From Acidobacteriota bacterium (GTDB lineage Bacteria > Acidobacteriota > Thermoanaerobaculia > UBA5066 > Gp7-AA6), in the NCBI GenBank assembly GCA_039933215.1, contig JBDTOO010000005.1:22990-86989 (forward strand): a stretch of DNA of 64,000 bases, written 5' to 3'. This document shows positions 4,728 to 64,000 of this stretch, one piece after another. The position numbers and the translations under genes are program-made. Below the pieces are notes generated by a model. That model saw nothing but the letters and a program-made list of their open reading frames with translations. It ran no database searches and was not told the origin of the DNA. The first letter of the stretch is position 1. Each line of letters begins with the position of its first letter.

Positions 4728-5722
4728 TCCCGTTCCGCTACGCCCGAGCGACGGCGGTCCAGGAAGCCGTGGCCGCCGTTTCGCGCGAGCCGCGGGCGGC
4801 CTATCTGGGGGGCGGCACGACGATCGTCGATCTCATGCAGCTCGAGGTCGTGAACCCCGCCACACTCGTCGACGTCAACGCGCTCCCGCTGTCGCGCATC
4901 GAGACGCTGCCCGGCGGAGGCGTGAGGATCGGCGCGCTCGTCCGCAACAGCGAACTCGCCAACGACGCGAACATCCGGCGCCGGTATCCCGTTCTCTCGG
5001 AAGCGATTCTGTCGGGCGCCTCCGCCCAGATCCGCAACATGGCGACCACGGCGGGTAACCTGCTCCAGCGGACGCGGTGCCAGTACTTCCGGGACGTCTT
5101 CTCCGCGTGCAACAAGCGGGAGCCCGGCTCCGGGTGCGCCGCGATCGGCGGATACAACCGCATCCACGCGGTCCTGGGAACGAGCGATCGGTGCATCGCG
5201 ACGTTCCCGGGCGACATGCCCGTGGCGCTGGCGGCCCTGGAAGCCGTCGTCCGGACCCGACGCCCCGACGGCGCCGAGAGGCAGATCCCCATATCCGACT
5301 TCTACGTGTCGTACGGGGACGACCCGGCAAAGGAGACCGTGCTCGCGCACGGTGAGCTCATCACCGCCGTGGACCTGCCGGCGTCCGGGTGGCTCGCGCG
5401 CTCGCACTACCTGAAGATGCGGGACCGGGCGAGCTACGAGTTCGCGCTGTCGTCGGCCGCCGTGGCGCTCGACGTCGAAGGCGGGAAGGTCCGCCAGGCG
5501 CGCGTCGCCCTGGGAGGCGTCGCGACGAAGCCGTGGAGATCGGCGGAGGCGGAAAAGGCGCTCACGGGAGCGGCCGCCGGGGAAGCGGCGTGGACCGCGG
5601 CGGCCTCGGCCGCGCTCGCCGGAGCGAAGCCTCAAAAGCACAACGCCTTCAAGGTCGAGCTCGCCCGGCGCACGCTGGCGCGGGCCCTCGCCACGGCCGC
5701 CGGCCGGGAGATCGCGTCATGA
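4724..5722 (+). CDS. paoB: Aldehyde oxidoreductase FAD-binding subunit (PaoB/YagS-like, CO dehydrogenase flavoprotein fold)
   Basis: MIPFRYARATAVQEAVAAV...AYLGGGTTIVDLMQL is a FAD-binding molybdopterin dehydrogenase motif. ATG 4724 overlaps the paoA stop (ATGA). Confidence 0.85.
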   Translation: MIPFRYARATAVQEAVAAVSREPRAAYLGGGTTIVDLMQLEVVNPATLVDVNALPLSRIETLPGGGVRIGALVRNSELANDANIRRRYPVLSEAILSGASAQIRNMATTAGNLLQRTRCQYFRDVFSACNKREPGSGCAAIGGYNRIHAVLGTSDRCIATFPGDMPVALAALEAVVRTRRPDGAERQIPISDFYVSYGDDPAKETVLAHGELITAVDLPASGWLARSHYLKMRDRASYEFALSSAAVALDVEGGKVRQARVALGGVATKPWRSAEAEKALTGAAAGEAAWTAAASAALAGAKPQKHNAFKVELARRTLARALATAAGREIAS

Positions 5723-50229: not shown

Positions 50230-52281
50230 TCAACGGCGAGGCGCTGCCTCCTGGACCGTCGGCATCGCCGTCACGAACGGCGCGATGCCGAGCTCCCGGT
50301 CGAGGGCGGCGGGCGACACGACCTTGCCCTGCGTGATCACCAGGGCCACCTTCCGGATGTCCCCGATCGTCGTCGTCGGGTCGCCGTCGAAGAGCACGAG
50401 GTCGGCGAGCTTGCCCGATGTGATCGAGCCGCGGTCGGCGAGCGTCCGGGTGTATTTCGCGCCGTTCCACGTCGCCACCTGAAGAGCCTGCGCGGGCGTC
50501 AGCCCGGCCTGGACGTACAGCTCGAGCTCCCGCTGCAGGGTGAACCCCGGCAGCTCGTCGGTCCCCGCGACGATCGGGATCCCCGCCCGGTACAACCGGC
50601 CGACGAACTCGATCAGCTTCGCGTACGACTTCTCGTAGCGCGCGGCCGTCGCCGCGTCCGGGATCTTCATCTGGCCGACGCGGCGGGAGCGCTGCACGTC
50701 GATCGGCAGGTGGTCGAACACGGCGGCGTAGGCCTGCGGTATCTCTCCGTCGCGCTGGCGCAGGAAGTCGAAGGTCGTGAGGGTCGGGTCGATGACCGTC
50801 GGCTCCTTTTTCAGGAGCGCGATGAAGTCCTGGACCGGCTTCGAGTCGAAGTCGAGGCCCGCGGTCTTCTCCGCAACCAGGTAGAAGCGCTCGAGCGTGC
50901 GCGTGTCGGTCGTCGGAGTGACGAAGAAGTTCAGCATCACCTGGTTGATGTGCTGGATCTCGTCAAATCCCTGCTCGACCACCTCGCTCGCGCGCATGAA
51001 CGCCGGCACGTGCCCGCTGACCCGCATGCCTCGGCTGTGCGCGTAGGCGACCGTGTCGCGCACGAGCTCCTTTGGAAACGAGTTGTAGATCTTCATCTGC
51101 GGGTAGCCGCGCTCGGCGTACCAGTCGACGGCGTCCTTCGCGCCCTGCAGGTCCTTGACGACGAAGCCACCGCGGGAGGCGAAGGGACTCTCGCCCTCGA
51201 GGTACCCCGCCGGGACGATGTGCGGGAAGAGCAGCTTCCCCGAGGCCCGGTCGTCGATCATCTGCTGCAGCGTCGGATTGTCGCTGCCCATGTCGCGGAT
51301 CGTGGTTACGCCGGCGGCGAGGTCGAGGCCGCCCGACCAGCGGTCGACGTGCGAATGCATGTCGAAGAGGCCGGGAAGCATCACGCGTCCCCCGGCGTCG
51401 ATCTCGTTGTCCGCTCCGCGGACCGGGGATCCGGCCGGGAGGATCGCCGTAATGCGGCCGCGCAGCACGTAGACGTCGGAGGGGGCGCCCAGCCGCGCGT
51501 TCTCGCTGTCGAAGACTCGGGCGTTGCGGATCACCGTCAGGCCGGGAAGCGGCTTCATGAGCCGCGAAGCCATGTCCGCGAGGAGCGCGGCCTCGGCCTG
51601 TTTCTGCCGCGTCTCGAGCGTGCCGCGAGTGTCCTCCCATCCTTCCTCGATGCCGGCGGCGAAGCCGGGCGCGATGGATGCGAAGAGCCTCGGCTTCTCG
51701 CCCGTCGTCGCCCAGTAGAACGACGGCGTCAGCCCCTGGCCGGATTGCGCGACGAGCTGCACGCGCTGGCTCCTGCCGCCCTGCGAGACCTCGACTTCGT
51801 CCAGCCTGCGCTGCGTGAGGGTGCCGGACGGGAGGAGGGGCAGCTTGCCGTCCGGCCGCGCCGCGATCGCGGCGATCGAGACCGAGGCGACGTCGCCCGA
51901 GCCGTTCAGCGGCACGTACATGGCCGGCCCGGAGACGCGACGCTCGCCCTTCTCCGAGGAGGAGCTCCAGACGGCCCGATCGCCCGTTTTCGCGAAGTGT
52001 TCGTCCACCGGGTTGCCGTACGTGGACGTGCCCTTCACGCGGTATTCGGCGTAGGTGCCGTCGGGCGCGAGGCGGTATTCCTCGTCGAGCTCCGGCCCGC
52101 GGCCGTTGTCCTTGAAGATGAAATGGACGCGGACGCGGCCGCCCGATTCGTAGGTCGTGACCTGTTCGCCGGCCTTCGACCCGTCGGCCGTGTAGATGAC
52201 GTATCGGATCCGTTCCGCCGCCTGCGCGGAGGCCGCGGCGGCGAGCGCGCCAAGAAGCGCCAGGGCCCGTGCGATTCGCAT
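50230..52281 (-). CDS. Metal-dependent amidohydrolase family protein, secreted
   Basis: Signal peptide. MLPGLFDMHSHVD is the HxH metal-binding motif. ...VAGTDELPG... Confidence 0.8.
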   Translation of the reverse strand: MRIARALALLGALAAAASAQAAERIRYVIYTADGSKAGEQVTTYESGGRVRVHFIFKDNGRGPELDEEYRLAPDGTYAEYRVKGTSTYGNPVDEHFAKTGDRAVWSSSSEKGERRVSGPAMYVPLNGSGDVASVSIAAIAARPDGKLPLLPSGTLTQRRLDEVEVSQGGRSQRVQLVAQSGQGLTPSFYWATTGEKPRLFASIAPGFAAGIEEGWEDTRGTLETRQKQAEAALLADMASRLMKPLPGLTVIRNARVFDSENARLGAPSDVYVLRGRITAILPAGSPVRGADNEIDAGGRVMLPGLFDMHSHVDRWSGGLDLAAGVTTIRDMGSDNPTLQQMIDDRASGKLLFPHIVPAGYLEGESPFASRGGFVVKDLQGAKDAVDWYAERGYPQMKIYNSFPKELVRDTVAYAHSRGMRVSGHVPAFMRASEVVEQGFDEIQHINQVMLNFFVTPTTDTRTLERFYLVAEKTAGLDFDSKPVQDFIALLKKEPTVIDPTLTTFDFLRQRDGEIPQAYAAVFDHLPIDVQRSRRVGQMKIPDAATAARYEKSYAKLIEFVGRLYRAGIPIVAGTDELPGFTLQRELELYVQAGLTPAQALQVATWNGAKYTRTLADRGSITSGKLADLVLFDGDPTTTIGDIRKVALVITQGKVVSPAALDRELGIAPFVTAMPTVQEAAPRR

Positions 52282-52370
52282 CGTTTCCCCCTATCCTCGT
52301 ATGAGGAAGATGATACGTGCGGCGCGCGCGCGGGTTTAGAGAGGCGCGGCCGCGGCGGAGGGAACGAGCG

Positions 52371-52790
52371 ATGCTCCACGTGACGCCGGCGATCGTCGTT
52401 CGCGAGGACGAGCTCGACGAACGGTTCGTCCGCGCATCGGGGCCCGGAGGTCAAAACGTCAACAAGGTCGCGACGGCGGTCGAGCTTCGCTTCGACGTGG
52501 CCGCTTCTTCGCTGCCCGCCGACGTCCAAGCCCGGCTCGCCGCGCTCGCCGGCAAGCGAATGACGGCCGAGGGCCTCCTCGTCATCGACAGCCGCGAGCA
52601 CCGGACGCAGGCGCGAAACCGGGCGGAAGCCCGGGCGCGGCTGGTCGATCTCCTGCGCCGCGCCGCCGTGAAGCCCCGGACGCGGCGGAAGACGAAGCCC
52701 TCGAAAGCGGCCCGGGAGCGCCGTCTGACGGCCAAAGTCCAGAGGGGGCACGTCAAATCGGGCCGCGGACGGGTGCGAACCGAGGACTGA
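52371..52790 (+). CDS. arfB: Alternative ribosome-rescue factor ArfB (peptidyl-tRNA hydrolase, YaeJ-like)
   Basis: GPGGQNVNKV is the GGQ motif. Basic C-terminal tail. About 139 aa. Confidence 0.85.
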   Translation: MLHVTPAIVVREDELDERFVRASGPGGQNVNKVATAVELRFDVAASSLPADVQARLAALAGKRMTAEGLLVIDSREHRTQARNRAEARARLVDLLRRAAVKPRTRRKTKPSKAARERRLTAKVQRGHVKSGRGRVRTED

Positions 52791-52870
52791 GGCTTCGCCG
52801 CCGGAGCGGATTTGCGGCTCCGCACGCCGCCGCCCGGCATATGGTGGCGCAAACAGGAGGCTCGACTTCT

Positions 52871-54847
52871 ATGCCGACACCGATTTTCTTCCGGAGGTCC
52901 GTCCGCGCGGCCGCGCTCTTCGTGGCGCTCGCCGTCCCCGGCCGACTGCCCGCCGAGCTGCCGCCCGTGATCTCCCGCGACGTCCTCTTCGGCAACCCCG
53001 AGAAGGCGCAGCCCCGGCTCTCGCCGGACGGCCAGCGCCTGGCGTGGGTCGCGCCCGACAAGAAGAACGTCCTGCAGGTCTGGGTCAAGACCGTGGGCAA
53101 GGACGACGACAAGATGATCACGGCCGACAAGAAGCGCGGCATCCGGCAGTACTTCTGGGCGCAGGACAACAAGACTCTCCTCTACATCCAGGACAACGAC
53201 GGCGACGAGAACTTCCACGTCTTCGGCGTCGACCTCGCGTCGAACAACGTTCGCGACTACACGCCCTACCAGGGCGTGCGGGCGGGCGTCGCGGACATCA
53301 GCCAGGACTTCCCGAACGAAGTCCTGCTCCAGATGAACCTGCGCAACCGGCAGCTGATGGACGTGCACCGCTTGAACCTCGCGACCGGCGCGCTGACGCT
53401 CGACACCGAGAATCCGGGCGACGTGGCCGGCTGGGGCGCCGACTCCCGGTTCCAGGTTCGCGCGGCCGAGGTGAACACGCCGGACGGCGGCACGGAGATC
53501 CGCGTCCGCGACGACGCGAAGTCCCCGTGGAAATCCCTGCTCAAGGTCGGCCCGGACGAGATCGTCGGGTTCGAGGACTTCGCCCAGGACGGCAAGTCGG
53601 CGTACCTCATGTCGTCCGTCGGCACCGACACGGCCCGTCTCGTCCAGCGGGACCTGGCGACCGGCTCCGAGAAGGTCCTGGCGGCCTCGCCCGAGGTGGA
53701 CGCCGGCGCGGTCCTGATCCAGCCGAAGTCCCACGTGGTCCAGGCCGTTTCCTTCGAGCCCGGCCGCTCCACGTGGAAGGTCCTCGACCCTTCCGTGCAG
53801 GGAGACTTCGATGGGATCCGCAAGTTGAACACGGGCGACTTCAGCGTCGTCAACCGCACGGCAGCCGACGACGCCTGGCTCGTCGCCTTCACGTCGGACC
53901 GGGGGCCCGTCTCCTGGTACAAGTGGGATCGCACGGCGAAGAAGGGCACGCTCCTCTTCACCGCGCAGCCGAAGCTCGAAGGCCTTCCCCTCGCCGAGAT
54001 GAAGCCGGTCGTGATCCCGGCGCGCGACGGGTTGAAATTGAATTCCTACCTGACGCTTCCGGTCGGCGTCGCGCCGAAGGCGCTTCCTCTCATCCTGTTC
54101 GTCCACGGCGGTCCCTGGGGCCGGGACACGTGGGGATACAACGGCACGACGCAGTGGCTGGCGAATCGCGGCTACGCGGTCCTTCAGGTGAACTTTCGCT
54201 CGTCCACCGGCTACGGCAAGAAGTTCCTGAACGCCGGAAACCGCCAGTGGGGGCTCAAGATGCAGGACGACGTCGTCGACGCGGCGAAGTGGGCGGTCCA
54301 CCAGGGGGTCGCGGACCCGAAGAGGATCGCTGTGTACGGCGGCTCCTACGGCGGCTACGTCGCGCTCGAAGCGGCGACGCGCAACACGGACGTCTTCGCC
54401 TGCAACGTCGACATCGTCGGGCCCTCGAACATCAAGACGCTGATCGCGTCGATTCCTCCCTACTGGAAGCCGATCCGCGCGAAGTTCGATTCGCGCATGG
54501 GCAACGTCGACGATCCCAAGGACGCCGATCTCATCAAAAACGCCTCGCCGCTCTTCCAGGCGGACAAGATCACCCGGCCGCTGCTGATCGGCCAGGGAGC
54601 CAACGACCCGCGCGTCAACGTGAAGGAGTCCGAGCAGATCGTCGACGCCATCGAGAAGAACAAGGGCAACGTGACCTACGTGCTGTACTCGGACGAGGGC
54701 CACGGGTTCGCGCGCCCCGAGAACCGGATCGACTTCAACGCCCGCGCGGAAAAGTTCCTCGGAAGCTGTCTCGGCGGCCGCTTCGAGCCGATGGAGGGGG
54801 AGAAGATCCCCGGCTCGACCGCGGTGGTGAAGGTCGTCGGCAAGTAG
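52871..54847 (+). CDS. S9 family serine peptidase (dipeptidyl aminopeptidase / acylaminoacyl-peptidase type), secreted
   Basis: Signal peptide. N-terminal propeller. Catalytic GGSYGG and C-terminal ...DEGHGF. Confidence 0.85.
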   Translation: MPTPIFFRRSVRAAALFVALAVPGRLPAELPPVISRDVLFGNPEKAQPRLSPDGQRLAWVAPDKKNVLQVWVKTVGKDDDKMITADKKRGIRQYFWAQDNKTLLYIQDNDGDENFHVFGVDLASNNVRDYTPYQGVRAGVADISQDFPNEVLLQMNLRNRQLMDVHRLNLATGALTLDTENPGDVAGWGADSRFQVRAAEVNTPDGGTEIRVRDDAKSPWKSLLKVGPDEIVGFEDFAQDGKSAYLMSSVGTDTARLVQRDLATGSEKVLAASPEVDAGAVLIQPKSHVVQAVSFEPGRSTWKVLDPSVQGDFDGIRKLNTGDFSVVNRTAADDAWLVAFTSDRGPVSWYKWDRTAKKGTLLFTAQPKLEGLPLAEMKPVVIPARDGLKLNSYLTLPVGVAPKALPLILFVHGGPWGRDTWGYNGTTQWLANRGYAVLQVNFRSSTGYGKKFLNAGNRQWGLKMQDDVVDAAKWAVHQGVADPKRIAVYGGSYGGYVALEAATRNTDVFACNVDIVGPSNIKTLIASIPPYWKPIRAKFDSRMGNVDDPKDADLIKNASPLFQADKITRPLLIGQGANDPRVNVKESEQIVDAIEKNKGNVTYVLYSDEGHGFARPENRIDFNARAEKFLGSCLGGRFEPMEGEKIPGSTAVVKVVGK

Positions 54848-55073: not shown

Positions 55074-55418
55074 TCACGGGAGAGTCGCGAGGCCGGCGGC
55101 CGGGCAACTCGAGAACGCGCCCGTGTCCTGGATGGGTTGGAACGGCGTGCCGAGCGGGTTCTCGTAGGTCTTGATGGCACCGGTGTCGCGGTCGACGACC
55201 GTCAGCTCGATCCTGCCGATCTTCGGGGCGGCGATTTCATTGAACCAGAGCGCGCCGTCCGGCCCGACCGTGATCCCGCCCGGGCGACTCCCTTGCGTGG
55301 GAAGGTTGAAATACGTCAGCGTCTGGGCCGGTAGGAGCGTGGCGACGCCCGCCCCGACGAGAGCAAGAAAAACGATCACGATTCCAGAATTCGCCCGCGC
55401 TCCCGACCCGTGATGCAT
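55074..55418 (-). CDS. Truncated paralog: signal peptide + single Vgb-like blade + last ~35 aa of the conserved C-terminal domain
   Basis: MHHGSGARANSGIVIVFLALVGAGVATLLPAQT...GPDGALWFNE...LTVVDRDTGAIKTYENPLGTPFQPIQDTGAFSSCP. Probably a deletion derivative. Confidence 0.45.
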   Translation of the reverse strand: MHHGSGARANSGIVIVFLALVGAGVATLLPAQTLTYFNLPTQGSRPGGITVGPDGALWFNEIAAPKIGRIELTVVDRDTGAIKTYENPLGTPFQPIQDTGAFSSCPAAGLATLP

Positions 55419-55451: not shown

Positions 55452-56819
55452 CTAGGGGCAACTCGAAAAGGCCTCGGTGTCCAGGACGGGTTGGAACGGC
55501 GTGCCGTTCGGGTTCTCGAAGGCCTTGACCGCCCCCGTTTCCCTGTCGACGACCGTGACGACGACGCCGACGTTCGTGAGCCCCGTCACGAACACCCACG
55601 TGCGGTTGTTGACGGCACAACCGTTCAGGACCTTCGCCACGACTTCGACGTTCTGCGAGTCGAAGAATGTGAAGTAGCCGGCGTCTTCCGTGAGAGCGGC
55701 AGCCTGTCCCGGTCCGCTCGCCGACGCGGTCGTCCACCGGGCGGTGACCGCAAAACGATTTCCGCTCAGGCAGAGGGTCGTGACATCCGGGGTGCAGAGT
55801 CCAAGGCCGGTGGTGTATTCGAAGACTCCCTCGGATGTCGCGGCAAAGAGCCTCGCCGGGTTCAGGGGGTCGATGACGAGGGTATTGACGCTCTTCCCGG
55901 GTAAGCCTTCCATGCTCATTGCCGTCCAGCTATTGCCGCCGTCTCTGGTTCTATAGAGGCCTACGACTGTGGTGGCGTAGAGGTTCGCCGGGTTTCGAGG
56001 ATCGATCGCGAGCGCTCCGATCGCACCCGTTCCGGGCAGACCTGCGTTGACCGCAGTCCAGTTCTGTCCGGCGTCCCTGCTTCTGAACACCCCCATGCTC
56101 GTGCCCGCGTAGAGCGTCGCGGGTGCCAGCGGATCGATGACGAGATCAAAGACGGCCAGGCCGTTCAGCCCGACGCTCGACCAGGTGTGACCGGAGTCGA
56201 TGGTCCTGTAGAGACCCTGGTTCCAGAACGTCCCGGCGTAGAGAGTGGCCGACCTCGTCGGATCGACGGTGAGCACTGCGATGTCGGGAGGATTTTGAGC
56301 CATCCCGCTGGATCGCCAGCTCAGCCCGTTGTCCGTGCTCCTGAAGACGCACGGTCCGTCGCACCCGTATTCGTTAGTGCCCACATAGATGGTGGACGGG
56401 TTACCGGGGCTGATAACGAGTGCCGTGACGTCGAAATTGGGAAGTCCCCTGCTGGCCCAGGTCCAGCTGACACCGTCGTTGACGCTTCGAAAAACCGCTC
56501 TGTTCGTAGCGGCATAGAGGTTCCCCGGCCTGGCCGGATCGACAGCGAGTGCCCGTACGGACGCCTCAGGAGTTGCGTCGGAATGGATGAAATTCCATGT
56601 GCTGCCGCTGTCGGTGCTCTTGAACAGCCCCTGGTTGCTGAACGCGTAGAGAATGGACGGGGTCGTCGGATCGATGGCCAAAGCCCCGATGGAATCCCCT
56701 GCCGGTCCGTGCGTGGTCCAGGTGTTGATGCCCGCGGTGGCTTTCCCTCCGGTGAGGAAAAGCAGAACCAAGACCCTCGAGAGAATGGAGAGGAGCGAGG
56801 TTCCAGTCTTTCGGTTCAT
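55452..56819 (-). CDS. Secreted BNR/Asp-box repeat beta-propeller protein with conserved Cys-containing C-terminal domain
   Basis: Start MNRKTGTSLLSILSRVLVLLFLTGG, with GGAGG RBS. Six S-x-D-x-G-x-T-W-type units: STDSGSTW, SVNDGVSW, STDNGLSW, TIDSGHTW, SRDAGQNW and TRDGGNSW. C-terminal domain LCTPDVTTLCLSGNRFAVTARW...VKVLNGC...TPFQPVLDTEAFSSCP. Confidence 0.8.
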   Translation of the reverse strand: MNRKTGTSLLSILSRVLVLLFLTGGKATAGINTWTTHGPAGDSIGALAIDPTTPSILYAFSNQGLFKSTDSGSTWNFIHSDATPEASVRALAVDPARPGNLYAATNRAVFRSVNDGVSWTWASRGLPNFDVTALVISPGNPSTIYVGTNEYGCDGPCVFRSTDNGLSWRSSGMAQNPPDIAVLTVDPTRSATLYAGTFWNQGLYRTIDSGHTWSSVGLNGLAVFDLVIDPLAPATLYAGTSMGVFRSRDAGQNWTAVNAGLPGTGAIGALAIDPRNPANLYATTVVGLYRTRDGGNSWTAMSMEGLPGKSVNTLVIDPLNPARLFAATSEGVFEYTTGLGLCTPDVTTLCLSGNRFAVTARWTTASASGPGQAAALTEDAGYFTFFDSQNVEVVAKVLNGCAVNNRTWVFVTGLTNVGVVVTVVDRETGAVKAFENPNGTPFQPVLDTEAFSSCP

Positions 56820-56872
56820 GAGAGACCTCCAATGAATTGCGGAAGAGGCGTTGTCCCGGCGAGCTCGACGCT

Positions 56873-58207
56873 CTAGGGACAGCTCGCGAAGGCGCCCGTG
56901 TCCAGGATCGGCGGGAACGGTGTGCCGGGCGAATTGGAGTAGCTGCGGGCCGCGCCGGTCTCCACGTCGACGACAGTCAGGACCACGTAGACGTTCGTGA
57001 GCCCCGCCGCGAACACCCAGGTGTGCGAATTGATGCTGCAGCCGTTCAACACCTTCACGACGATCTCGACGTTGTTCGGGCCGAAGAAGGTGAAGTAGCC
57101 GGCATCCGGCGTGATGGCGACCGCCTGCCCGGAACCGATCGTCCCGTTGGCGATCCACTGGGTCGTGACCGCGAACCGTCCGCCGCGCAAGCAGAGTGTC
57201 GTCGCGTCCGGCACGCAGGCATTCGTCCCCTCCGACGTGATCCGCACGAGCTGGTTCCCCGCAGCGAGCCAGACATGGCGGTCCGGTCCCAGGACGAGGG
57301 GGCCGCTGGGCGCGCCGATCCCCCCGGAGATCGGGATCTCCGTGACGACGCCATCGGGTGAAATCCGGCCGATCCTTTCCGTCTGGTCCTCCGTGAACCA
57401 GAGGTTGCCGTCCGGGCCCGCGACGATATGGGAACCGGCGGCGCCGGACGGTACGGGGAATTCGGTGATGGCGCCGGCCGGGGTGATTCGACCGATCGTG
57501 GGCGCCGCTTCCGTGAACCAGAGGTTGCCGTCCGCGCCCAGCGAGAGGTCCTTGGCCCAATTCTCGTCTCGGATGGAAAATATTCTTGTATGGCCCGCGG
57601 CGTCGATCCGTCCGATGGCGGCCCCGTAGTATTCGCTGAACCAGACGTGACCATCGGAACCGGCGGCGATCCTAGAAGGGTCGGCGTGGGTCACGGTGAA
57701 TTCGGTGATGACTCCGGCCGGCGTGATCCGGCCGATCCTCGAGCTCGACCTCTCGGTGAACCAGACATTGCCGTCGGGGCCCGCCGCGATCGCCAACGGA
57801 AATCCGTCCGTCGTCGGGATCGAAAACTCGGTGACGACCCCGGCTGTGGAGATCCGTCCGATGGCCCCGCGGACCTCGGTGAACCAGAGATTTCCGTCCG
57901 GGCCGGCGGCGATGCCGCCGAGCTCGGTAACTCGATCGGGTGTGGAGAATTCCGTCACATCACCCGCCATGGTCATGCGCCCAATGCGGCCTCGGTTTCC
58001 GACGTACCAGAGGTTGCCGTCCGGGCCGGCCGCGAGGCCGATCACGGAGCCGGGAATCGGGAATGCCGTGAAAGTCTCCGCAGAAGCGGCGGCGGCGAAG
58101 CCGGCAGCCAGAGCGGCAAAGGCGGAGACCAGGACTCGGAAGCGGCGGTTGCCGCCGCGCTTTGCCACCCGGGTTTCATCCGCTCCGCTTTTCGTGGCGC
58201 AATTCAT
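56873..58207 (-). CDS. Secreted Vgb/streptogramin-lyase-like 7-blade beta-propeller protein with the same conserved C-terminal domain
   Basis: Start MNCATKSG...RFRVLVSAFAALAAGFAAAASA. Repeats GPDGNLWYVG, GPDGNLWFTE (three times), GPDGNVWFTE, GSDGHVWFSE and GADGNLWFTE. C-terminal domain ACVPDATTLCLRGGRFAVTTQW...VKVLNGC...TPFPPILDTGAFASCP. Confidence 0.8.
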   Translation of the reverse strand: MNCATKSGADETRVAKRGGNRRFRVLVSAFAALAAGFAAAASAETFTAFPIPGSVIGLAAGPDGNLWYVGNRGRIGRMTMAGDVTEFSTPDRVTELGGIAAGPDGNLWFTEVRGAIGRISTAGVVTEFSIPTTDGFPLAIAAGPDGNVWFTERSSSRIGRITPAGVITEFTVTHADPSRIAAGSDGHVWFSEYYGAAIGRIDAAGHTRIFSIRDENWAKDLSLGADGNLWFTEAAPTIGRITPAGAITEFPVPSGAAGSHIVAGPDGNLWFTEDQTERIGRISPDGVVTEIPISGGIGAPSGPLVLGPDRHVWLAAGNQLVRITSEGTNACVPDATTLCLRGGRFAVTTQWIANGTIGSGQAVAITPDAGYFTFFGPNNVEIVVKVLNGCSINSHTWVFAAGLTNVYVVLTVVDVETGAARSYSNSPGTPFPPILDTGAFASCP

Positions 58208-58254
58208 TTTCAGTTCCTTTCGATTTCGGAAAGACGGTCCATGTGTGGGGCGGG

Positions 58255-58704
58255 CTAGTTCACCGTCACGGAAAAATTGCCGCAGCCCTTCCCGGAGGGG
58301 GTTCGAACGCACGGCGTATACGGCCCCGGCGGGACATTCCCCGGAACCACGATTCCCACGCGCGTGCCGTTGAAGACGGATTCCTGGACGCTCATTTCGA
58401 ATACCGAAGCTCCCGCCTCGAAGGTGGCGACCGGGTCCGGAAACAAGTTTTTTCCACGGATGATCCAACCGGCGCGCGGGTAATAGTTCCTCGTCGGCTC
58501 CGCGGACGTGACCATCGGCACGCCGGAAGCGGGTGGTGGAAGACCCGGAATTGATGTGACCTCGCTATGCGGCTGGGTCGGAGCATACGGGTCGTCTTTG
58601 CAGGCAGAAACCAGAATTGCCGACGCGGCCAGGATCACCAGCGCCGCTCTGGCCAGGACGGCTCTCCCCTTTGGGACGGTTGCCATTTCGGGCACGGAAC
58701 GCAT
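58255..58704 (-). CDS. Small lipoprotein, possible IPT/TIG-like beta-sandwich
   Basis: AAGGAG RBS. Lipobox ILVSAC. ...SAEPTRNYYPRAGWIIRGKNLFPDPVATFEAG... Confidence 0.55.
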   Translation of the reverse strand: MRSVPEMATVPKGRAVLARAALVILAASAILVSACKDDPYAPTQPHSEVTSIPGLPPPASGVPMVTSAEPTRNYYPRAGWIIRGKNLFPDPVATFEAGASVFEMSVQESVFNGTRVGIVVPGNVPPGPYTPCVRTPSGKGCGNFSVTVN

Positions 58705-58715
58705 TCGAGACTCCT

Positions 58716-58745
58716 TTCGGACGATCGCTTTTCGGCGTCCGATCG
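58716..58745. promoter_or_regulatory. Inverted repeat TCGGACG-N12-CGTCCGA in the 92-bp divergent intergenic region
   Basis: tcggacgatcgcttttcggcgtccga lies between the lipoprotein start (58704) and the regulator start (58797). Candidate operator; function not established. Confidence 0.3.
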
Positions 58746-58796
58746 TGAATCGGCGGCCTCGGGGATGTCCTTGTAGAATCCTCAGAAAGTCCTCAA

Positions 58797-59426
58797 ATGC
58801 GATTCGATCTGGGAACCGTCACGCTCGACACGGATCGCCACCAGGTGTTTCGCGGCGCCCAGCCCCTGCACCTCTCCACGAGGGCTTTTCAGCTGCTGTC
58901 GATGCTCGTGGAGAACCGCCCGCGCGCTCTTTCGAAGGACGAGCTGCAGCGAGCGCTCTGGCCGGAGACGTTCGTGTCCGACACGAGCCTCACGACTCTC
59001 ATCAACGAGATCCGCTCGCTGCTCTCCGAGACCGCGAAGGACGCCCGACTCATCCGCACCGTGCACGGCTACGGCTACGCCTTCGAGGGCGCGACCTCTC
59101 CGGCGCCGCCTCCCGGGTGCCGCCTGATCTGGGGCGAGCGAGAGGTACCGCTCGCAGAAGGCGAGAACATCCTCGGACGCGACCCGGGCGCCCGCGGCTC
59201 CATCCCCGACGCTTCCATTTCTCGCCGCCATGCCCGGATCACGGTCCACGGCGACACGGCGACGCTCGTGGACCTGATGAGCAAGAACGGCACATGGGTC
59301 GGAGACCACCGTGTGACGGAGCCGATCGCGTTATCCGACGGCGACGCCGTGCGGTTGGGTCTCGTCCGTCTGGTCTTCCGCGCGGCGTCGGAAACCTCTT
59401 CTTCCACGACCAAGACCGTCCGCTGA
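58797..59426 (+). CDS. One-component regulator: OmpR/PhoB-type winged-helix DNA-binding domain fused to C-terminal FHA domain (no receiver domain)
   Basis: N-terminus LSTRAFQLLSMLVENRPRALSKDELQRALWPETFVSDTSLTTLINEIRSLL...IRTVHGYGYAF is the trans_reg_C family. C-terminus ...ENILGRDPGA...ISRRHARITVHGDTATLVDLMSKNGTWVGDHRV is an FHA domain. Confidence 0.8.
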   Translation: MRFDLGTVTLDTDRHQVFRGAQPLHLSTRAFQLLSMLVENRPRALSKDELQRALWPETFVSDTSLTTLINEIRSLLSETAKDARLIRTVHGYGYAFEGATSPAPPPGCRLIWGEREVPLAEGENILGRDPGARGSIPDASISRRHARITVHGDTATLVDLMSKNGTWVGDHRVTEPIALSDGDAVRLGLVRLVFRAASETSSSTTKTVR

Positions 59427-59532
59427 GAAAGGCAGTCAGTCACGCGACGGCTGCAGGCCGTGGTGAGAATCGCACCCGATTGACAGGCTACTTTCCCGGA
59501 AACAGAATGACGTTACCGTCTCCGGAGACCCC

Positions 59533-62301
59533 ATGAGGTTCGAGCGGGCGTCCGCGGTGGTGCTGTTCAGCGTGTGGGTTATGGCGGCTCGCGCGGCAGC
59601 TCAGGCCCCGTCGCCGACCGGGAATCTCTACGGCACCGCTCTTGACGCTCAAGGCCATTCGGTGATCGGCGTCACCGTGGCGCTCACAGGATCGGGCGCG
59701 GTGCAAACCGCGCAGACCGGTGCGAACGGCGATTTCCACTTCTTGAACCTTTCGCCGGGCGCATACGCCGTGCGACTCGATCGGACGGGATTCGAAACGG
59801 TGCGCCGAGACGTGACCGTCGTTCTCGGTAAGAGCTCGGTGATCTCGATCACGATGCCCGTCGCGGGCGCGGTGGAGGACGTCACGGTCCATGGGGACGC
59901 GCCCGCTCTGGACAACCGCAAGATCCAGACGGGCGCGACTTTCGGCCAAAAGGAGCTCGAGAGTATCCCCACGACACGGGATCCGTGGGCCATCCTCCGT
60001 CAGGTACCCGGCGTCCTGATCGAAACTGTGAACGTGGGAGGCAACCCGCATGCGAGACAGCCCCTCTTCGTCGGTAAGGGCGCTCACCCGGATCAGAACA
60101 GCTACAACCTCGACGGTGTCGCGATCAGCCTTGGAGGGATCTCTCCGCTCTTCTTCGACTTCGATTCTTTGAGCGACATCGAGGTCGCGACCGGCGGCTC
60201 CGACCCGTCGCTCGCCACCCCTGGCGTGACAATCAACCTCGTTACCAAGCGCGGCACCAACCGGCTCAAGGGCTCGGCTCGCGTTCTGTACACCGGTGGC
60301 GCCGGGTGGGATTTCGGAATCGAGGCCGGTGGCTCGCCCTGGAAAGACCATTTGTGGGTCTGGGGCGCCGCCGCGCGGAACTCTTACCTGGGCCACACAT
60401 TCTTCTCGAACACGGGCGAGGCCGTCCGGAGCCAGGAGACGCTCGAGCACTGGAACGCGAAGTTGAACGCGCAGCTCCTGCCGGACAACGCGCTCGCTCT
60501 CACCTACACCGATTTCAAGAGGCTCAATCTGGGCCTCGCCAGCCCGGACTTTTCCAGAGCCTCGACCGGAGACAATGTTCGCCCGGGGAAGTCTTACAGA
60601 GTGGAGGACTCACAGGTCCTGTCCGCGCGGCTTTTCGCCTCCCTCTATGTCTCGTATGTAACGGCCGTTTCGACGGCGAAGCCCGAGGGAGGAATCGACG
60701 AGCAGGCGGAGCAGGACATCGATCTCATCTGGCAGCGGAGCTATTGGTCCCGCCGGTTCCGGGATTCGCAGCAATCGACCGGAACCAGTGCGTCGGCCTT
60801 CTTCGACACGGGCGGCCTGCGTCACGAGCTGAAGTTCGGATTCGGATTCAGGCATACCCGATCCGACGAGGCGTTGAGCTGGCCCGGGGACGGGCTCGTT
60901 GGCTACGCGTTTTACCGCCAGGTCGGGATCACGCGCCGGCAGGATCAAAAATCCGAGGTGAATCACTACTTCGCGTTCTTCGGTGACACGGTCCAGGCGG
61001 GCAACCTCACGCTGAATTTCGGCGCCCGGTTCGACTACCAGCAGGGGAGGAATCTGGCGGCGTCGGTTCCGGCCAATCCGGTCTTTCCAGAGCTACTACC
61101 GGCCGTCCAATACGACGGCGATTCGAATTACCCGATCACGCGGCGGCAAATTCAGCCCAGGGTCGGGGCGACGTACGCCCTTGGCCGACACCGCACGCTG
61201 CTCCGCGCCTCCTATTCCCGATTCGCCGACCAGCTGAGCAGCACCCCGGTCCGGTTCATCAGTGCATTCCCGGACATCGCGGCCCTCTACTACAGCTGGA
61301 ACGACGCAAACGGAAACGACCGCGTCGAACGGGACGAGGTGAACCTCTCCGACCCCCAGGGCTTCGTCGGTGTCGACCCGAACGATCCAGGATCCTCCGC
61401 CTCCGTCAATCGGATCGCGAGCGGCTTCGAGCCCCCTGTCACGGACGAGTACATCCTCCAGGTCGAACGGCAGATCGCATCCGACTTGTCGGGCTCTGTT
61501 TCGTACACCTACCGCAAATCCCGCAACCCTCTATTTTTCGACCTGATCGGAACGAGCGCCGACAGCTATCGATATCTCGGCAATGCGACGGGTACGTTCA
61601 CCGATGGCGCCGGATTCGTCGTCAACTTCAGCGAGCCTTATTACGGACTGACGGACCCACCTCCCGTGGGAACCGAGCTCCGGAATCGTCCGGATGCCAA
61701 CGAGACGTACGAGGGGGTGGAGCTCCAGCTGCTCAAGTCGTTCTCCCACGGCTGGATGGCTCGATTGAGCGCCTCCTTCAACGACTGGCGACAACACGTC
61801 GGCCCGCGCGCGATCTTCAATCCGAACAACGAGACCCCGGGCACCAATGCCAACGGTCCGACGGGCGAGGGAGTCATCAACTCGAAGTGGCAATTCAATG
61901 TGAGCGGTATGGTCGCGCTTCCGCTCGGAATCGAAGCCGGCCTGAATCTGTTCGGCCGCCAGGGCTTTTCGATTCCCTACTGGGTGGAAGTGGTGACCGG
62001 GGATTCGAACTTCAACAGGCCCGGCATTCAGATCGGACAGGCGACGCGCTATAGAGCGCCCGATCTCTACGATCTCGATCTCCAGATTGCGAAGGTGTTT
62101 CGGATCGGATCGTTAACCGTGACTCCGCAAATCGCGTGCTTCAATTTGCTGGACAGCCGCACCGTACTGCAACGCGATGGGTTCGTCGGGACATACGATC
62201 CCCAGGAGACCCCGGACTTCCGGAAGAATGAGAGTTTCAACGCGCCGATCGAGGCTTTGAGCAAGCGCGTCTTCCGCGGCGGCGTGCGGATCGAGTTCTA
62301 A
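59533..62301 (+). CDS. TonB-dependent receptor-like outer-membrane protein with N-terminal carboxypeptidase-regulatory-like domain
   Basis: Signal peptide. GTALDAQGHSVIGVTVALTGSGAVQTAQTGANGDFHFLNLSPGAYAVRL is CarbopepD_reg. Long beta-barrel region ending with aromatic residue ...GGVRIEF. Confidence 0.8.
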   Translation: MRFERASAVVLFSVWVMAARAAAQAPSPTGNLYGTALDAQGHSVIGVTVALTGSGAVQTAQTGANGDFHFLNLSPGAYAVRLDRTGFETVRRDVTVVLGKSSVISITMPVAGAVEDVTVHGDAPALDNRKIQTGATFGQKELESIPTTRDPWAILRQVPGVLIETVNVGGNPHARQPLFVGKGAHPDQNSYNLDGVAISLGGISPLFFDFDSLSDIEVATGGSDPSLATPGVTINLVTKRGTNRLKGSARVLYTGGAGWDFGIEAGGSPWKDHLWVWGAAARNSYLGHTFFSNTGEAVRSQETLEHWNAKLNAQLLPDNALALTYTDFKRLNLGLASPDFSRASTGDNVRPGKSYRVEDSQVLSARLFASLYVSYVTAVSTAKPEGGIDEQAEQDIDLIWQRSYWSRRFRDSQQSTGTSASAFFDTGGLRHELKFGFGFRHTRSDEALSWPGDGLVGYAFYRQVGITRRQDQKSEVNHYFAFFGDTVQAGNLTLNFGARFDYQQGRNLAASVPANPVFPELLPAVQYDGDSNYPITRRQIQPRVGATYALGRHRTLLRASYSRFADQLSSTPVRFISAFPDIAALYYSWNDANGNDRVERDEVNLSDPQGFVGVDPNDPGSSASVNRIASGFEPPVTDEYILQVERQIASDLSGSVSYTYRKSRNPLFFDLIGTSADSYRYLGNATGTFTDGAGFVVNFSEPYYGLTDPPPVGTELRNRPDANETYEGVELQLLKSFSHGWMARLSASFNDWRQHVGPRAIFNPNNETPGTNANGPTGEGVINSKWQFNVSGMVALPLGIEAGLNLFGRQGFSIPYWVEVVTGDSNFNRPGIQIGQATRYRAPDLYDLDLQIAKVFRIGSLTVTPQIACFNLLDSRTVLQRDGFVGTYDPQETPDFRKNESFNAPIEALSKRVFRGGVRIEF

Positions 62302-62365
62302 CGCCCTCGGCGTCATCGCCGCCGGGAATACATCCTTCGGACTAGAATCCCCCGACGGCTATTCG

Positions 62366-64000
62366 ATGACATTGCCCTCCGGGACGCGGCTTGGCCCCTA
62401 CGAAATCCTCGCCCCGCTCGGTGCGGGTGGCATGGGCGAGGTCTACCGGGCACACGACACGCGCCTCGTGCGAGAGGTCGCCATCAAGGTCCTGCCGGAC
62501 GAGTTCGTCCCCGACGCGTCTCGCCTCAAGCGTTTCGAGATCGAGGCGCGCGCGGCTTCCGCCCTGAATCACCCGAACATCGTCACGGTCTACGACATCG
62601 GCACTTCGAATTCGATCTCCTACATCGCGATGGAGCGCGTCGAGGGCGAGACCCTGAGAAAGCTCATCGAGGGCGGTCTTCGACTGCGGAGGATGCTTTC
62701 CATCGCGGCACAGATCGGCGACGGTCTGGCGAAGGCTCATGAGGTCGGGATCGTTCACCGGGACCTGAAGCCCGAGAACGTGATGGTGACGAAAGAGGGG
62801 CTCGTCAAGATCCTGGATTTCGGCCTCGCGAAGCTGACCCGAGCGGGTGTCGGAAGCGACGAGGGAGCGTATCTGCTCACGGAGAGCCTCACGGGCCCGG
62901 GTGTGTTGATGGGAACGATCGGCTACATGTCTCCCGAGCATGCGAGCGGCGGGGTGCTGGACTTTCGGTCCGACCAGTTTGCGTTCGGCTCGATCCTCTA
63001 CGAGATGGTGAGCGGCAAGCGGGCGTTTCAGAAGAAGACGGGCGTCGAAACCCTGGCGTCGATCCTCAACGAAGACCCTCCGCCCCTTTCCGCCGCAGCT
63101 CCGAATGCGCCCGCACCCTTGAGATGGATCGTCGAGCGCTGTCTCGCCAAGAGCCCCGGTGAACGTTACGCGGCGACTCGGGATCTGGCGCGAGACCTCG
63201 CCACGCTCAAGGACCACGTGGCGGACATCAGCTCCGACGGGCTCCGGCCGGTGAGCCCTGCCAGTCGGGCTCCCGCCCGCCGCGGCCGGCGCGGCGCTCT
63301 TCTCGGCGCTCTGGGTATCGTGGCTGTGGGAGCGGGAGTCCTGCTGGCGCCCTGGCTCAAGCGGAGCGGAAGAGAGGAGCTGCCGACCTGGAGCCAGGTC
63401 GGGTTCCGGCGCGGCGTGGTCTGGTCCGGGCGTTTTGCGCCCGACGGCCAGACAATCGTCTACAGCGCGTCCTGGGATAGCGACCCGATGCGCCTGTTCT
63501 CGACGCGCCCGGGATCCAGCGAGACCCGCACCCTCGACCTGCCGCCGGCCAAGCTCCTCGCCATCTCGCCGTCGAGCGAAATCGCCTTTCTCCGCGATCC
63601 CCGTTTCTTCACCTTCTCCTACCAGCCCGGCACTCTCGTGAGGGCCGGGCTGGAAGGGGGGACGGGAAGGGACGTCCTCGAAAACGTCGTGACCGCGGAC
63701 TGGTCTCCTGACGGCACGCAACTGGCCGTCGCCCGCGATGTCGGCGGAAAGACCCGGCTGGAATACCCCCTCGGCAAGAAGATCTACGAGACCGACCAGA
63801 GGATCAGCAACCTGAGGATTTCCCGGGACGGTAACTGGATCGCCTTCATGCAGCAGGGGATATCCGTCGTGGCCGTCCGGGCGTTGGATGGTCTGAAACG
63901 AGTTCTGTGGGAGGGGGAGTTTTCCGGCGCATCGGGACTCGCGTGGTCAGCGGACGGACGGGAGATCTGGTTTACACCACAGAAACAGGTTCGCGACAGC
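62366..64000 (+). CDS. Ser/Thr protein kinase with C-terminal TM segment and TolB-like beta-propeller (3' end outside window)
   Basis: GPYEILAPLGAGGMGEVYRAHDTRLVREVAIKVL (Gly loop and VAIK), HRDLKPEN, DFGLA, GTIGYMSPE. TM segment ALLGALGIVAVGAGVLLA, then TolB-like ...DGQTIVYSASWDSD.... No stop before 64000. Confidence 0.85.
   Translation, partial: MTLPSGTRLGPYEILAPLGAGGMGEVYRAHDTRLVREVAIKVLPDEFVPDASRLKRFEIEARAASALNHPNIVTVYDIGTSNSISYIAMERVEGETLRKLIEGGLRLRRMLSIAAQIGDGLAKAHEVGIVHRDLKPENVMVTKEGLVKILDFGLAKLTRAGVGSDEGAYLLTESLTGPGVLMGTIGYMSPEHASGGVLDFRSDQFAFGSILYEMVSGKRAFQKKTGVETLASILNEDPPPLSAAAPNAPAPLRWIVERCLAKSPGERYAATRDLARDLATLKDHVADISSDGLRPVSPASRAPARRGRRGALLGALGIVAVGAGVLLAPWLKRSGREELPTWSQVGFRRGVVWSGRFAPDGQTIVYSASWDSDPMRLFSTRPGSSETRTLDLPPAKLLAISPSSEIAFLRDPRFFTFSYQPGTLVRAGLEGGTGRDVLENVVTADWSPDGTQLAVARDVGGKTRLEYPLGKKIYETDQRISNLRISRDGNWIAFMQQGISVVAVRALDGLKRVLWEGEFSGASGLAWSADGREIWFTPQKQVRDS

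Follow-up and report, generated by a model that had tools for sequence, protein, structure and literature searches.

A winged helix-FHA regulator linked to a propeller-bearing Ser/Thr kinase in Acidobacteriota: a putative Ser/Thr counterpart of two-component signalling

The window is the whole stretch of DNA that was analysed, 64,000 nucleotides of contig JBDTOO010000005.1 from an Acidobacteriota bacterium (assembly GCA_039933215.1). Towards its right-hand end lies a gene for a small protein in which a winged helix-turn-helix domain is joined to a C-terminal FHA domain (wHTH-FHA), this protein is called the regulator here. It is followed on the same strand by a gene for a TonB-dependent-receptor-like protein and a gene for a membrane Ser/Thr kinase with a propeller. 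Across a 92-bp spacer it is divergent from a putative operon encoding a lipoprotein-like protein and two propeller proteins that have a C-terminal domain (CTD) in common. The original prediction, made from the letters of the sequence, had described these genes; the divergent arrangement was verified, the receptor-like and kinase genes were found as stated, and Pfam agrees that an OmpR/PhoB-type winged helix and a C-terminal FHA domain are present, with no receiver. The genes of the locus are given below in window coordinates.

58797-59426, plus strand: wHTH-FHA regulator gene, 209 amino acids (aa), Pfam Trans_reg_C and FHA
59403-59414, plus strand: codons of the C-terminal tail motif S203-T204-T205-K206, family consensus [ST]-T-x-[TS], a candidate phospho-acceptor
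59533-62301, plus strand: TonB-dependent-receptor-like outer-membrane protein gene, 922 aa (CarboxypepD_reg 1.6e-14)
62366-64000 (truncated at the end of the window), plus strand: Hanks-type Ser/Thr kinase that has a transmembrane segment and a PD40/TolB-like propeller (Pfam Pkinase 1.5e-44, and PD40)
55452-58704, minus strand: divergent putative operon of the lipoprotein-like, Vgb-CTD and BNR-CTD genes, with gene gaps of 47 and 53 nt
58255-58704, minus strand: lipoprotein-like open reading frame (ORF), 149 aa, lipobox LVSAC read from the sequence
56873-58207, minus strand: Vgb-lyase-like propeller with CTD (Pfam Vgb_lyase 1.1e-80)
55452-56819, minus strand: BNR/Sortilin propeller with CTD (Pfam Sortilin-Vps10 5.2e-19)

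The regulator, the kinase and the wHTH-FHA family

The winged helix of the regulator is matched by Pfam at residues 22-96 (58860-59084, Trans_reg_C, E 4.8e-18) and the FHA domain at residues 125-188 (59169-59360, E 1.3e-17). The same Pfam scan gives no match to Response_reg, the winged helix beginning at residue 1, and none to BTAD, there being some 10-12 linker residues between the winged helix and the FHA domain. No NCBIfam model scores above its cut-off on the regulator, and an identical NCBI protein from an Acidobacteriota metagenome-assembled genome (MAG) is named merely 'winged helix-turn-helix domain-containing protein'.

An AlphaFold2 model of the regulator, made with 64 homologs, has a mean predicted local distance difference test score (pLDDT) of 84 and contains two folded domains. 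The winged helix spans residues 1-97 and is followed by a linker of about 10 residues, the FHA sandwich (108-196) and a tail (199-209), which has a pLDDT of about 30 and is predicted to be disordered. Among solved structures, the nearest by sequence to the first half of the protein are DNA-binding domains of the PhoB/OmpR type. The best structural matches are the FHA domains of the mycobacterial proteins FhaA, GarA and EmbR and of Bdellovibrio DgcB, with a template modelling score (TM-score) of about 0.8 over the FHA part for the first three. The FHA residues that contact phospho-Thr (G127, R128, S142, R143, H145, N164 and G165) are invariant in alignments of both 64 and 134 sequences.

The disordered tail contains a conserved motif. 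In the alignment of 134 family proteins T204 is kept in 128 (96%), position 203 is Ser or Thr in 112 and position 206 is Thr or Ser in 114, while the positions that flank the motif vary. Only about 8 residues separate T204 from the last FHA strand. Because T204 is a near-universal Thr within an otherwise variable and disordered segment, the S-T-x-T tail, T204 foremost, is the likely candidate for a phospho-acceptor in the regulator. Conservation of this kind would be expected of phospho-acceptor tails such as the ETTS tail of GarA/OdhI or that of DgcB.

The kinase consists of a Pkinase domain, one hydrophobic segment (ALLGALGIVAVGAGVLLAPWL, read from the translation) and then PD40 repeats, an order that would place the propeller in the periplasm. 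Full-length orthologs of the window kinase are 826-872 aa long. The motifs HRDLKPEN, DFG and SPE are conserved in 31 regulator-linked kinases, as are the activation-loop residues T176 (97%) and T184 (100%). The suggestion that the juxtamembrane part of the kinase might be rich in Thr was not borne out, in the 31 kinases no Thr is conserved at 60% or more from the end of the domain (around residue 275) to the membrane segment. The conserved candidate phospho-sites of the two proteins would be T176 and T184 of the kinase activation loop and the S-T-x-T tail of the regulator.

The receptor-like protein is less well defined by domain matches. Its Pfam Plug match is sub-threshold (21.9 bits, where the cut-off is 23.9), and the barrel is detected only in a 63%-identical ortholog (OMP_b-brl_4, 1.4e-25).

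The wHTH-FHA architecture is a large paralogous family and not a one-off fusion. A profile search of 1.84 billion cluster representatives (clusters at 50% identity) gave 1,772 matches at E<=1e-30, and among the best 150 of these most are 205-240 aa long and are matched end to end. At least 516 wHTH-FHA loci came from a scan in which each species was represented by one genome; the best 80 of these are almost all from Acidobacteriota (Thermoanaerobaculia, Vicinamibacteria, Holophagales), and within the same best 80 there are six MAGs with two loci each. One locus with an Acidobacteriota-type wHTH-FHA gene and a convergent PD40 kinase (L075, CAZOAZ010000020.1) is labelled 'uncultured Bifidobacterium sp.' and is probably mis-binned.

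Linkage of regulator and kinase genes

The linkage of the two genes was counted across the family in 139 fetched loci that contain a full-length family member. In 38 of the 139 a kinase gene starts on the same strand 0-400 bp downstream of the regulator. This corresponds to 0.74 kinase starts per kb, against a background of 0.01-0.03 per kb at 5-10 kb, an enrichment of about 35-fold. Divergent kinase starts within 1 kb upstream are found in 14 further loci (0.12 per kb). The linked kinases are 840-880 aa long and have the same plan of kinase domain, membrane segment and PD40-Tricorn propeller.

A closer comparison used orthologs of the regulator, which are 64-80% identical to it, and 13 informative loci. 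An ortholog of the window kinase (69-77% identical in the propeller region) lies within 10 kb of the regulator in nine of the 13, and the proximity persists across at least four gene orders, as follows.

Window: regulator, receptor, kinase
L084: regulator, receptor, minus-strand BNR gene, kinase
L091 and L086: kinase, then regulator directly
L001 and L083: kinase, 1-2 kb, regulator
L167: regulator and kinase overlapping by 4 nt, plus a second kinase
L169: kinase, opposite-strand receptor, divergent regulator

Because the proximity survives rearrangement, functional coupling is better supported than it would be by frozen synteny. The conserved neighbourhood that the original prediction had called for is therefore seen both across the family and among the orthologs. 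The other genes of the locus are also recurrent. BNR or Vgb propeller genes accompany the regulator in 8/13 orthologous loci, and a receptor-like ortholog (60-64% identity where measured) or a protein of the same domain architecture is beside it in 7/13.

Some further observations concern the orthologous loci. Two long-read MAG contigs (L083, L166) have their kinase, BNR and receptor genes broken up into several called genes, apparently through errors of assembly that shift the frame and not because they are real pseudogenes. In the loci of the 64-67% identical orthologs (L167-L169) giant alpha-2-macroglobulin-like genes (MG2/A2M, 1,000-2,000 aa), YceI and an M1 peptidase are found near the regulator, and in L168 YceI is directly downstream of it, in the place of the kinase.

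A repeat module upstream of the regulator

The region upstream of the regulator contains a conserved module of about 62 nt, which ends at the start codon and consists of a motif that we call box A and then three 11-nt direct repeats. The features of the spacer and of the kinase promoter are listed here.

58717-58723 / 58736-58742, no strand: inverted repeat TCGGACG-N12-CGTCCGA, present in the spacer
58740-58753, plus strand: box A, CGATCGTGAATCGG (consensus CGATCCTGGnCCGG), about 14 nt upstream of repeat 1 and overlapping the 3' arm of the inverted repeat
58767-58799, plus strand: three tandem 11-nt direct repeats, GTCCTTGTAGA / ATCCTCAGAAA / GTCCTCAAATG, a predicted operator; the last repeat holds the ATG
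58774-58779, plus strand: TAGAAT, a -10-like hexamer within repeat 1, with TG in front of it, located 17 nt ahead of the regulator ATG
62331-62348, plus strand: promoter region of the window kinase, one repeat-like unit CATCCTTCGGA (62331-62341), then C, then TAGAAT (62343-62348)

The repeat units are arranged head-to-tail with a TCCT core and an exact 11-nt period. Sixteen orthologous upstream regions agree almost fully over the 33 nt that close with the ATG, and their flanks do not align. In the 64-kb window the module is found once, whether by a strict triple-TCCT pattern, by a 30-mer with 3 mismatches or by a tandem scan with a position weight matrix, and the matrix scan gives no hits in about 410 kb of shuffled sequence. 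The only strong predicted site in the window is thus the spacer between the regulator and the propeller operon. Box A is kept at an equal distance from the repeats in the copies upstream of the regulator, the kinase and the Vgb gene (alignment A3). It was considered by eye as a sigma54 or extracytoplasmic function (ECF) sigma factor promoter and dropped, the TTGC -12 element being absent. As a fourth in-phase repeat it was likewise dropped by eye, the TCCT-to-TCCT distance being 24-25 nt and not 22. Rfam gave no match at E<=1 in the spacer or leader and an RNA element was rejected, and 5-mer enrichment against the whole-locus background was uninformative, returning AT-rich promoter words only.

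The sequence TAGAATCC precedes the ATG by exactly 17 nt at both the regulator (58774-58799) and the window kinase (62343-62368), and likewise at the kinase ATG in four orthologs (L001, L083, L084 and L091). No Shine-Dalgarno sequence precedes the ATG of the regulator or the kinase. The distance of the -10-like hexamer from the ATG, together with the lack of a Shine-Dalgarno sequence, suggests a -10 element followed by a leader of about 10 nt at both genes. The predicted transcription starts would fall some 7 nt past TAGAAT, near 58786 and 62355. Near-leaderless transcripts may be a conserved design of the pair.

The module is also present upstream of the kinase gene in five orthologous loci (L001, L083, L084, L091 and L166); it is where the kinase is transcribed separately that this second copy is found. 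In L001, L083 and L091 the end of the kinase-side module is 8 nt upstream of a conserved GCTAGAATCC; in L083 this module is at 5597-5671. In L084 and L166 a BNR gene is divergent from the kinase and the module lies in the spacer between them; in L084 its distance from the start codon of the BNR gene is 54 nt. In L083 a third copy faces a Vgb-CTD gene. In L091 and L093 the regulator begins 5 nt after the kinase and has no promoter of its own, the module precedes the kinase instead. The module therefore tracks the transcription units of the regulator and kinase pair.

The 11-nt period is a property of the whole family. Over the 55 nt upstream of family genes the self-similarity at an 11-nt shift is 0.341, compared with 0.258 +/- 0.006 in shuffles (z=13.3). 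For 96 paralogs alone the periodicity has z=11.8, with a weak echo at 22 nt, and low-GC control windows from the same loci lack the 11-nt peak (0.236). Paralog subfamilies have unit variants of their own, such as GTCCTCGCGGA GTTCTCATGAA ACTCTAATTCC or GTCATTCGTGA ATCCTTCGGAA TTCCTGATTTT, which accompany their own variants of the recognition helix (helix 3) and wing. OmpR/PhoB-type domains read tandem direct repeats at the period of the DNA helix. For this reason the repeats are assigned to the regulator, and we infer that the triple 11-nt repeat is the operator of the wHTH-FHA regulator. In the leaders of three regulators (L088 at 2318-2364, L089 and L144) the third repeat is followed by an amplified heptamer, CCTCAAA CCTCAAA CCTCAAATG.

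The repeats are placed differently at the two genes. At the regulator gene repeat 1 contains the -10-like hexamer, and the predicted start site and leader lie under repeats 2-3, a position that would be of the repressor type. Where the kinase is transcribed separately (L001, L083 and L091), its promoter has the three repeats at roughly -53 to -21, which would be an activator-type position like that of a pho box.

The propeller operon starts 36 nt from box A and is thereby placed for co-control from the site of the regulator. Propeller genes of the BNR or Vgb kind are likewise placed in L001, L083, L084, L090, L091 and L166, where they face module-bearing spacers. The receptor-like gene has a sigma70-like promoter of its own, TTGACA-17-CAGAAT, at 59480-59508. 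The original prediction had the regulator govern both the propeller proteins and the receptor; the first part fits the module in the common spacers, the second concerns a gene whose promoter has no module but which is, of the neighbours, the one that stays most persistently beside the regulator.

The Vgb-CTD and BNR-CTD proteins have N-terminal signal peptides, judged by eye. Their common CTD is about 115 aa long and bounded by Cys (…TLCL..RF.V…VKVLNGC…GLTNV…TG…GTPF.P..DT.AF..CP), and it has no match in Pfam. The window holds copies at 56873-57220, 55452-55799 and 399-740 and a remnant at 55101-55211, all on the minus strand, with 55-64% identity between copies, and the CTD recurs beside wHTH-FHA genes in L007, L022 and L083. 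The propeller operon probably ends in a gene remnant, a 114-aa ORF at 55074-55418 on the minus strand that combines a truncated Vgb-lyase blade with the final third of the CTD. Third-position GC is 0.73-0.84 in the cluster (55452-64000), as against 0.92-0.93 in the neighbouring S9 peptidase and amidohydrolase genes (50230-54847), a difference that may stem from lower expression or from another history. Outside the cluster are an ArfB-like RF-1-domain protein with a GGQ motif (52317-52790, plus strand), an S9 prolyl-oligopeptidase-family protein (52841-54847, plus strand) and a secreted amidohydrolase (50230-52281, minus strand), which have no evident tie to the regulator.

A putative Ser/Thr kinase-to-promoter pathway

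We consider it probable that the regulator forms the output half, the one that binds DNA, of a signalling pair with a Ser/Thr kinase, a Hanks kinase standing in for the histidine kinase, and the FHA domain and phospho-acceptor tail for the receiver. The partnership of the two proteins, as the original prediction proposed it, is supported comparatively by genomic linkage and by the cis-module common to both genes. The propeller of the kinase would sense a periplasmic or envelope ligand, upon which the kinase would autophosphorylate on its activation loop (the T176 region). Like EmbR on PknH, the regulator would use its FHA domain to dock on the phosphorylated kinase, and it would be phosphorylated on its tail at T204. 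The FHA domain of another regulator molecule could then recognise the phosphorylated tail in trans, giving head-to-tail oligomers. Reading in trans appears more likely because the binding loops are at the opposite end of the FHA sandwich, where the molecule's own tail, on a linker of about 8 residues, would seem unable to reach them; a cis, auto-inhibitory reading like that of GarA is possible. Such an oligomer would bind the matching head-to-tail 11-bp repeats, in a manner akin to receiver dimerisation in PhoB and OmpR. Once bound it may exert feedback on the regulator and kinase genes and control the divergent propeller genes, and possibly the receptor-like gene.

Several points weigh against this proposal. 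The identity matrices of regulators and adjacent kinases are correlated (Mantel r=0.59, p<=2e-4, 28 pairs), which speaks for the linkage, but this correlation is confounded by species phylogeny. In four of the 13 orthologous loci there is no kinase within reach; in L002 the kinase, receptor-like and propeller genes are all absent within 10 kb, in L168 the receptor-like gene is retained and the kinase is absent within 10 kb, and in L088 and L095 no kinase is seen on contigs that are shorter. These genomes are rich in kinases, with about 1 kinase start per 25-50 kb per strand, so that cross-talk is possible. In the window the full module is present at the regulator gene only, the kinase promoter keeping a single repeat-like unit, and the receptor-like gene has an ordinary sigma70-like promoter with no repeats. 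FHA domains usually prefer pT-x-x-[ILV], the residue three after T204 is not consistently hydrophobic and the tail is a weak fit to this preference. The argument for trans over cis reading draws on linker length and textbook FHA geometry.

The alternative that survives best, although we think it unlikely, is that the regulator is a constitutive autorepressor, whose FHA domain mediates oligomerisation or the binding of partners independently of phosphorylation, the kinase gene being a target or a neighbour and not a controller. Phospho-independent FHA interactions and FHA oligomerisation are documented (discussed for EspM, PMC7002343). The repeats do overlap the regulator's own -10 element and leader, and since a kinase promoter carries the module the kinase gene would be at least a target. 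However, the canonical phospho-Thr residues of the FHA domain are invariant in 134 family proteins, and a tail Thr is 96% conserved within a variable, disordered segment. Moreover, the dominant arrangement sets the regulator gene, as in an operon, beside a kinase that looks active (conserved HRD, DFG and activation-loop Thr).

Slightly less likely again is that the wHTH-FHA protein does not use the repeat module as its operator, and that the module belongs to the promoter or leader or is bound by another factor. The distance of the repeats from the -10 element and the ATG differs at kinase promoters, where they are at least 32 nt upstream of the ATG, so they are no fixed leader element. The 11-nt periodicity is specific to the upstream regions of the family and matches the helical-repeat spacing of PhoB/OmpR sites, the repeat variants shift with the recognition helix and wing among paralog subfamilies, and Rfam has no match. 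It is nevertheless the case that the module contains a good extended -10 element (TGTAGAAT) and abuts the start codon, where near-leaderless constraints could conserve it, and box A has no assigned reader.

It seems improbable that other Ser/Thr kinases control the regulator and that the proximity of this kinase is incidental. The high background density of kinases, the 2.8-kb receptor gene between regulator and kinase in the window and the L002 and L168 orthologs, which have no kinase inside 10 kb, would fit this view, but the orthologous kinase keeps within 10 kb in 9/13 loci across at least four gene orders, which include direct adjacency and a 4-nt overlap, and the cis-module is common to both genes. 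Binding of the regulator as a symmetric dimer to the inverted repeat, which the original prediction had named as its operator, is very improbable: the repeat does exist in the 92-bp spacer (58717-58742) and its 3' arm overlaps the semi-conserved box A, but a perfect inverted repeat of at least 7 nt with a 3-20 nt loop occurs in 14.7% of dinucleotide-preserving shuffles of the spacer, which is chance level, none of the 14 orthologous upstream regions compared carries one, and OmpR/PhoB-type domains characteristically read direct repeats; the shuffles and the absence from orthologs led us to rule it out as the operator.

The proposed kinase and regulator pair is, judged from its domains, a variant of the EmbR/PknH logic. 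The FHA domain of EmbR is required for its docking on, and phosphorylation by, the receptor-type kinase PknH, and phosphorylation raises promoter binding (PMC4601284). EmbR has the same N-terminal OmpR-type winged helix, C-terminal FHA domain and neighbouring Hanks kinase, and its FHA domain matches that of the regulator by sequence (E 6.8e-9) and by fold. It differs in a BTAD/TPR-like domain of about 170 aa between these modules, where the regulator has a linker of about 10 residues and no detected BTAD, and superposition of the whole chains is poor, with a root-mean-square deviation of 18 Å. No counterpart in EmbR, which comes from another phylum, has been described for the S-T-x-T tail, the triple 11-bp operator or the PD40-propeller kinase. 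Because it lacks a BTAD, the regulator is placed outside the SARP/EmbR family.

The OmpR/PhoB response regulators share the DNA-binding fold (PhoB E 1.8e-8, DrrD E 1.2e-8). A pho box consists of direct repeats near the -10 element, and the predicted operator at orthologous kinase promoters resembles it in having head-to-tail 11-bp repeats just upstream of the -10 element. In contrast to these proteins the regulator has neither a receiver nor phospho-Asp chemistry, its proposed input being Ser/Thr phosphorylation through the FHA domain, and the absence of a receiver puts it outside the response-regulator family.

GarA and OdhI resemble the regulator in having an FHA domain (E 1e-8, with a fold match) and a short, disordered tail with a conserved Thr, close to a Hanks-kinase pathway. 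Their phosphorylatable ETTS tail is at the N-terminus and has the length needed to fold back in cis, and they act by inhibiting enzymes, whereas the tail of the regulator is C-terminal and about 8 residues from the FHA domain and its predicted output is DNA binding. In the Bdellovibrio FHA-GGDEF protein DgcB the phosphorylated tail of the protein is itself the FHA ligand that switches the output domain (PMC6733907). DgcB has an FHA fold match with the regulator, and differs in its diguanylate cyclase output and N-terminal tail.

EspM of Mycobacterium marinum and M. tuberculosis is an FHA-bearing transcription factor that binds a divergent promoter region including that of its own gene (PMC7002343). 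It is a protein of 363 aa with the FHA domain at the N-terminus, another kind of DNA-binding domain and no defined kinase partner. The eukaryotic FOXK/Fkh proteins also fuse a phospho-Thr reader to a winged helix; their forkhead domain is an unrelated winged-helix class of independent origin, and the likeness is an analogy only.

Literature searches found no paper on the wHTH-FHA family, an absence that does not prove that there is none. Nor did they find a description of the minimal two-domain wHTH-FHA protein as a very large family in Acidobacteriota, of an operon-type pairing of wHTH-FHA with PD40-propeller kinases, of the conserved S-T-x-T tail, or of a triple 11-bp operator common to regulator and kinase promoters.

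The physiological role is a matter for speculation, one possibility being the sensing and the uptake or processing of a ligand derived from an extracellular polymer. The TonB-receptor-like transporter, the secreted propellers and the propeller sensor resemble substrate-sensing uptake loci, such as Bacteroides loci under the control of hybrid two-component sensors with periplasmic propellers.

To our knowledge, Ser/Thr kinases are abundant in soil Acidobacteriota and the route by which their signals reach genes is essentially unknown. The wHTH-FHA family offers a simple route from kinase to promoter, with a predicted operator (the three TCCT-core repeats at 58767-58799), a candidate phosphosite (T204) and a putative cognate kinase, the candidate target genes being those for secreted beta-propeller proteins and the TonB-receptor-like transporter. 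Together the wHTH-FHA protein and the kinase suggest a Ser/Thr-based counterpart of two-component signalling. A wider and more tentative possibility, which we would not yet favour, is that Acidobacteriota possess a phylum-wide, multi-paralog 'Ser/Thr two-component system' of dedicated pairs, each of a membrane Hanks kinase with a propeller sensor and a wHTH-FHA regulator of about 210 aa, in which the phosphorylated tail of one regulator, recognised in trans by the FHA domain of another, would drive head-to-tail oligomerisation on tandem 11-bp repeats, and paralog-specific operators would insulate the pathways. If the proposed pathway is true, the DNA-binding module of OmpR/PhoB would have switched on a large scale, in at least 1,772 clusters, from control by His-Asp to control by Ser/Thr and FHA, and the regulator would provide a compact phospho-Thr-responsive transcription switch for synthetic biology.

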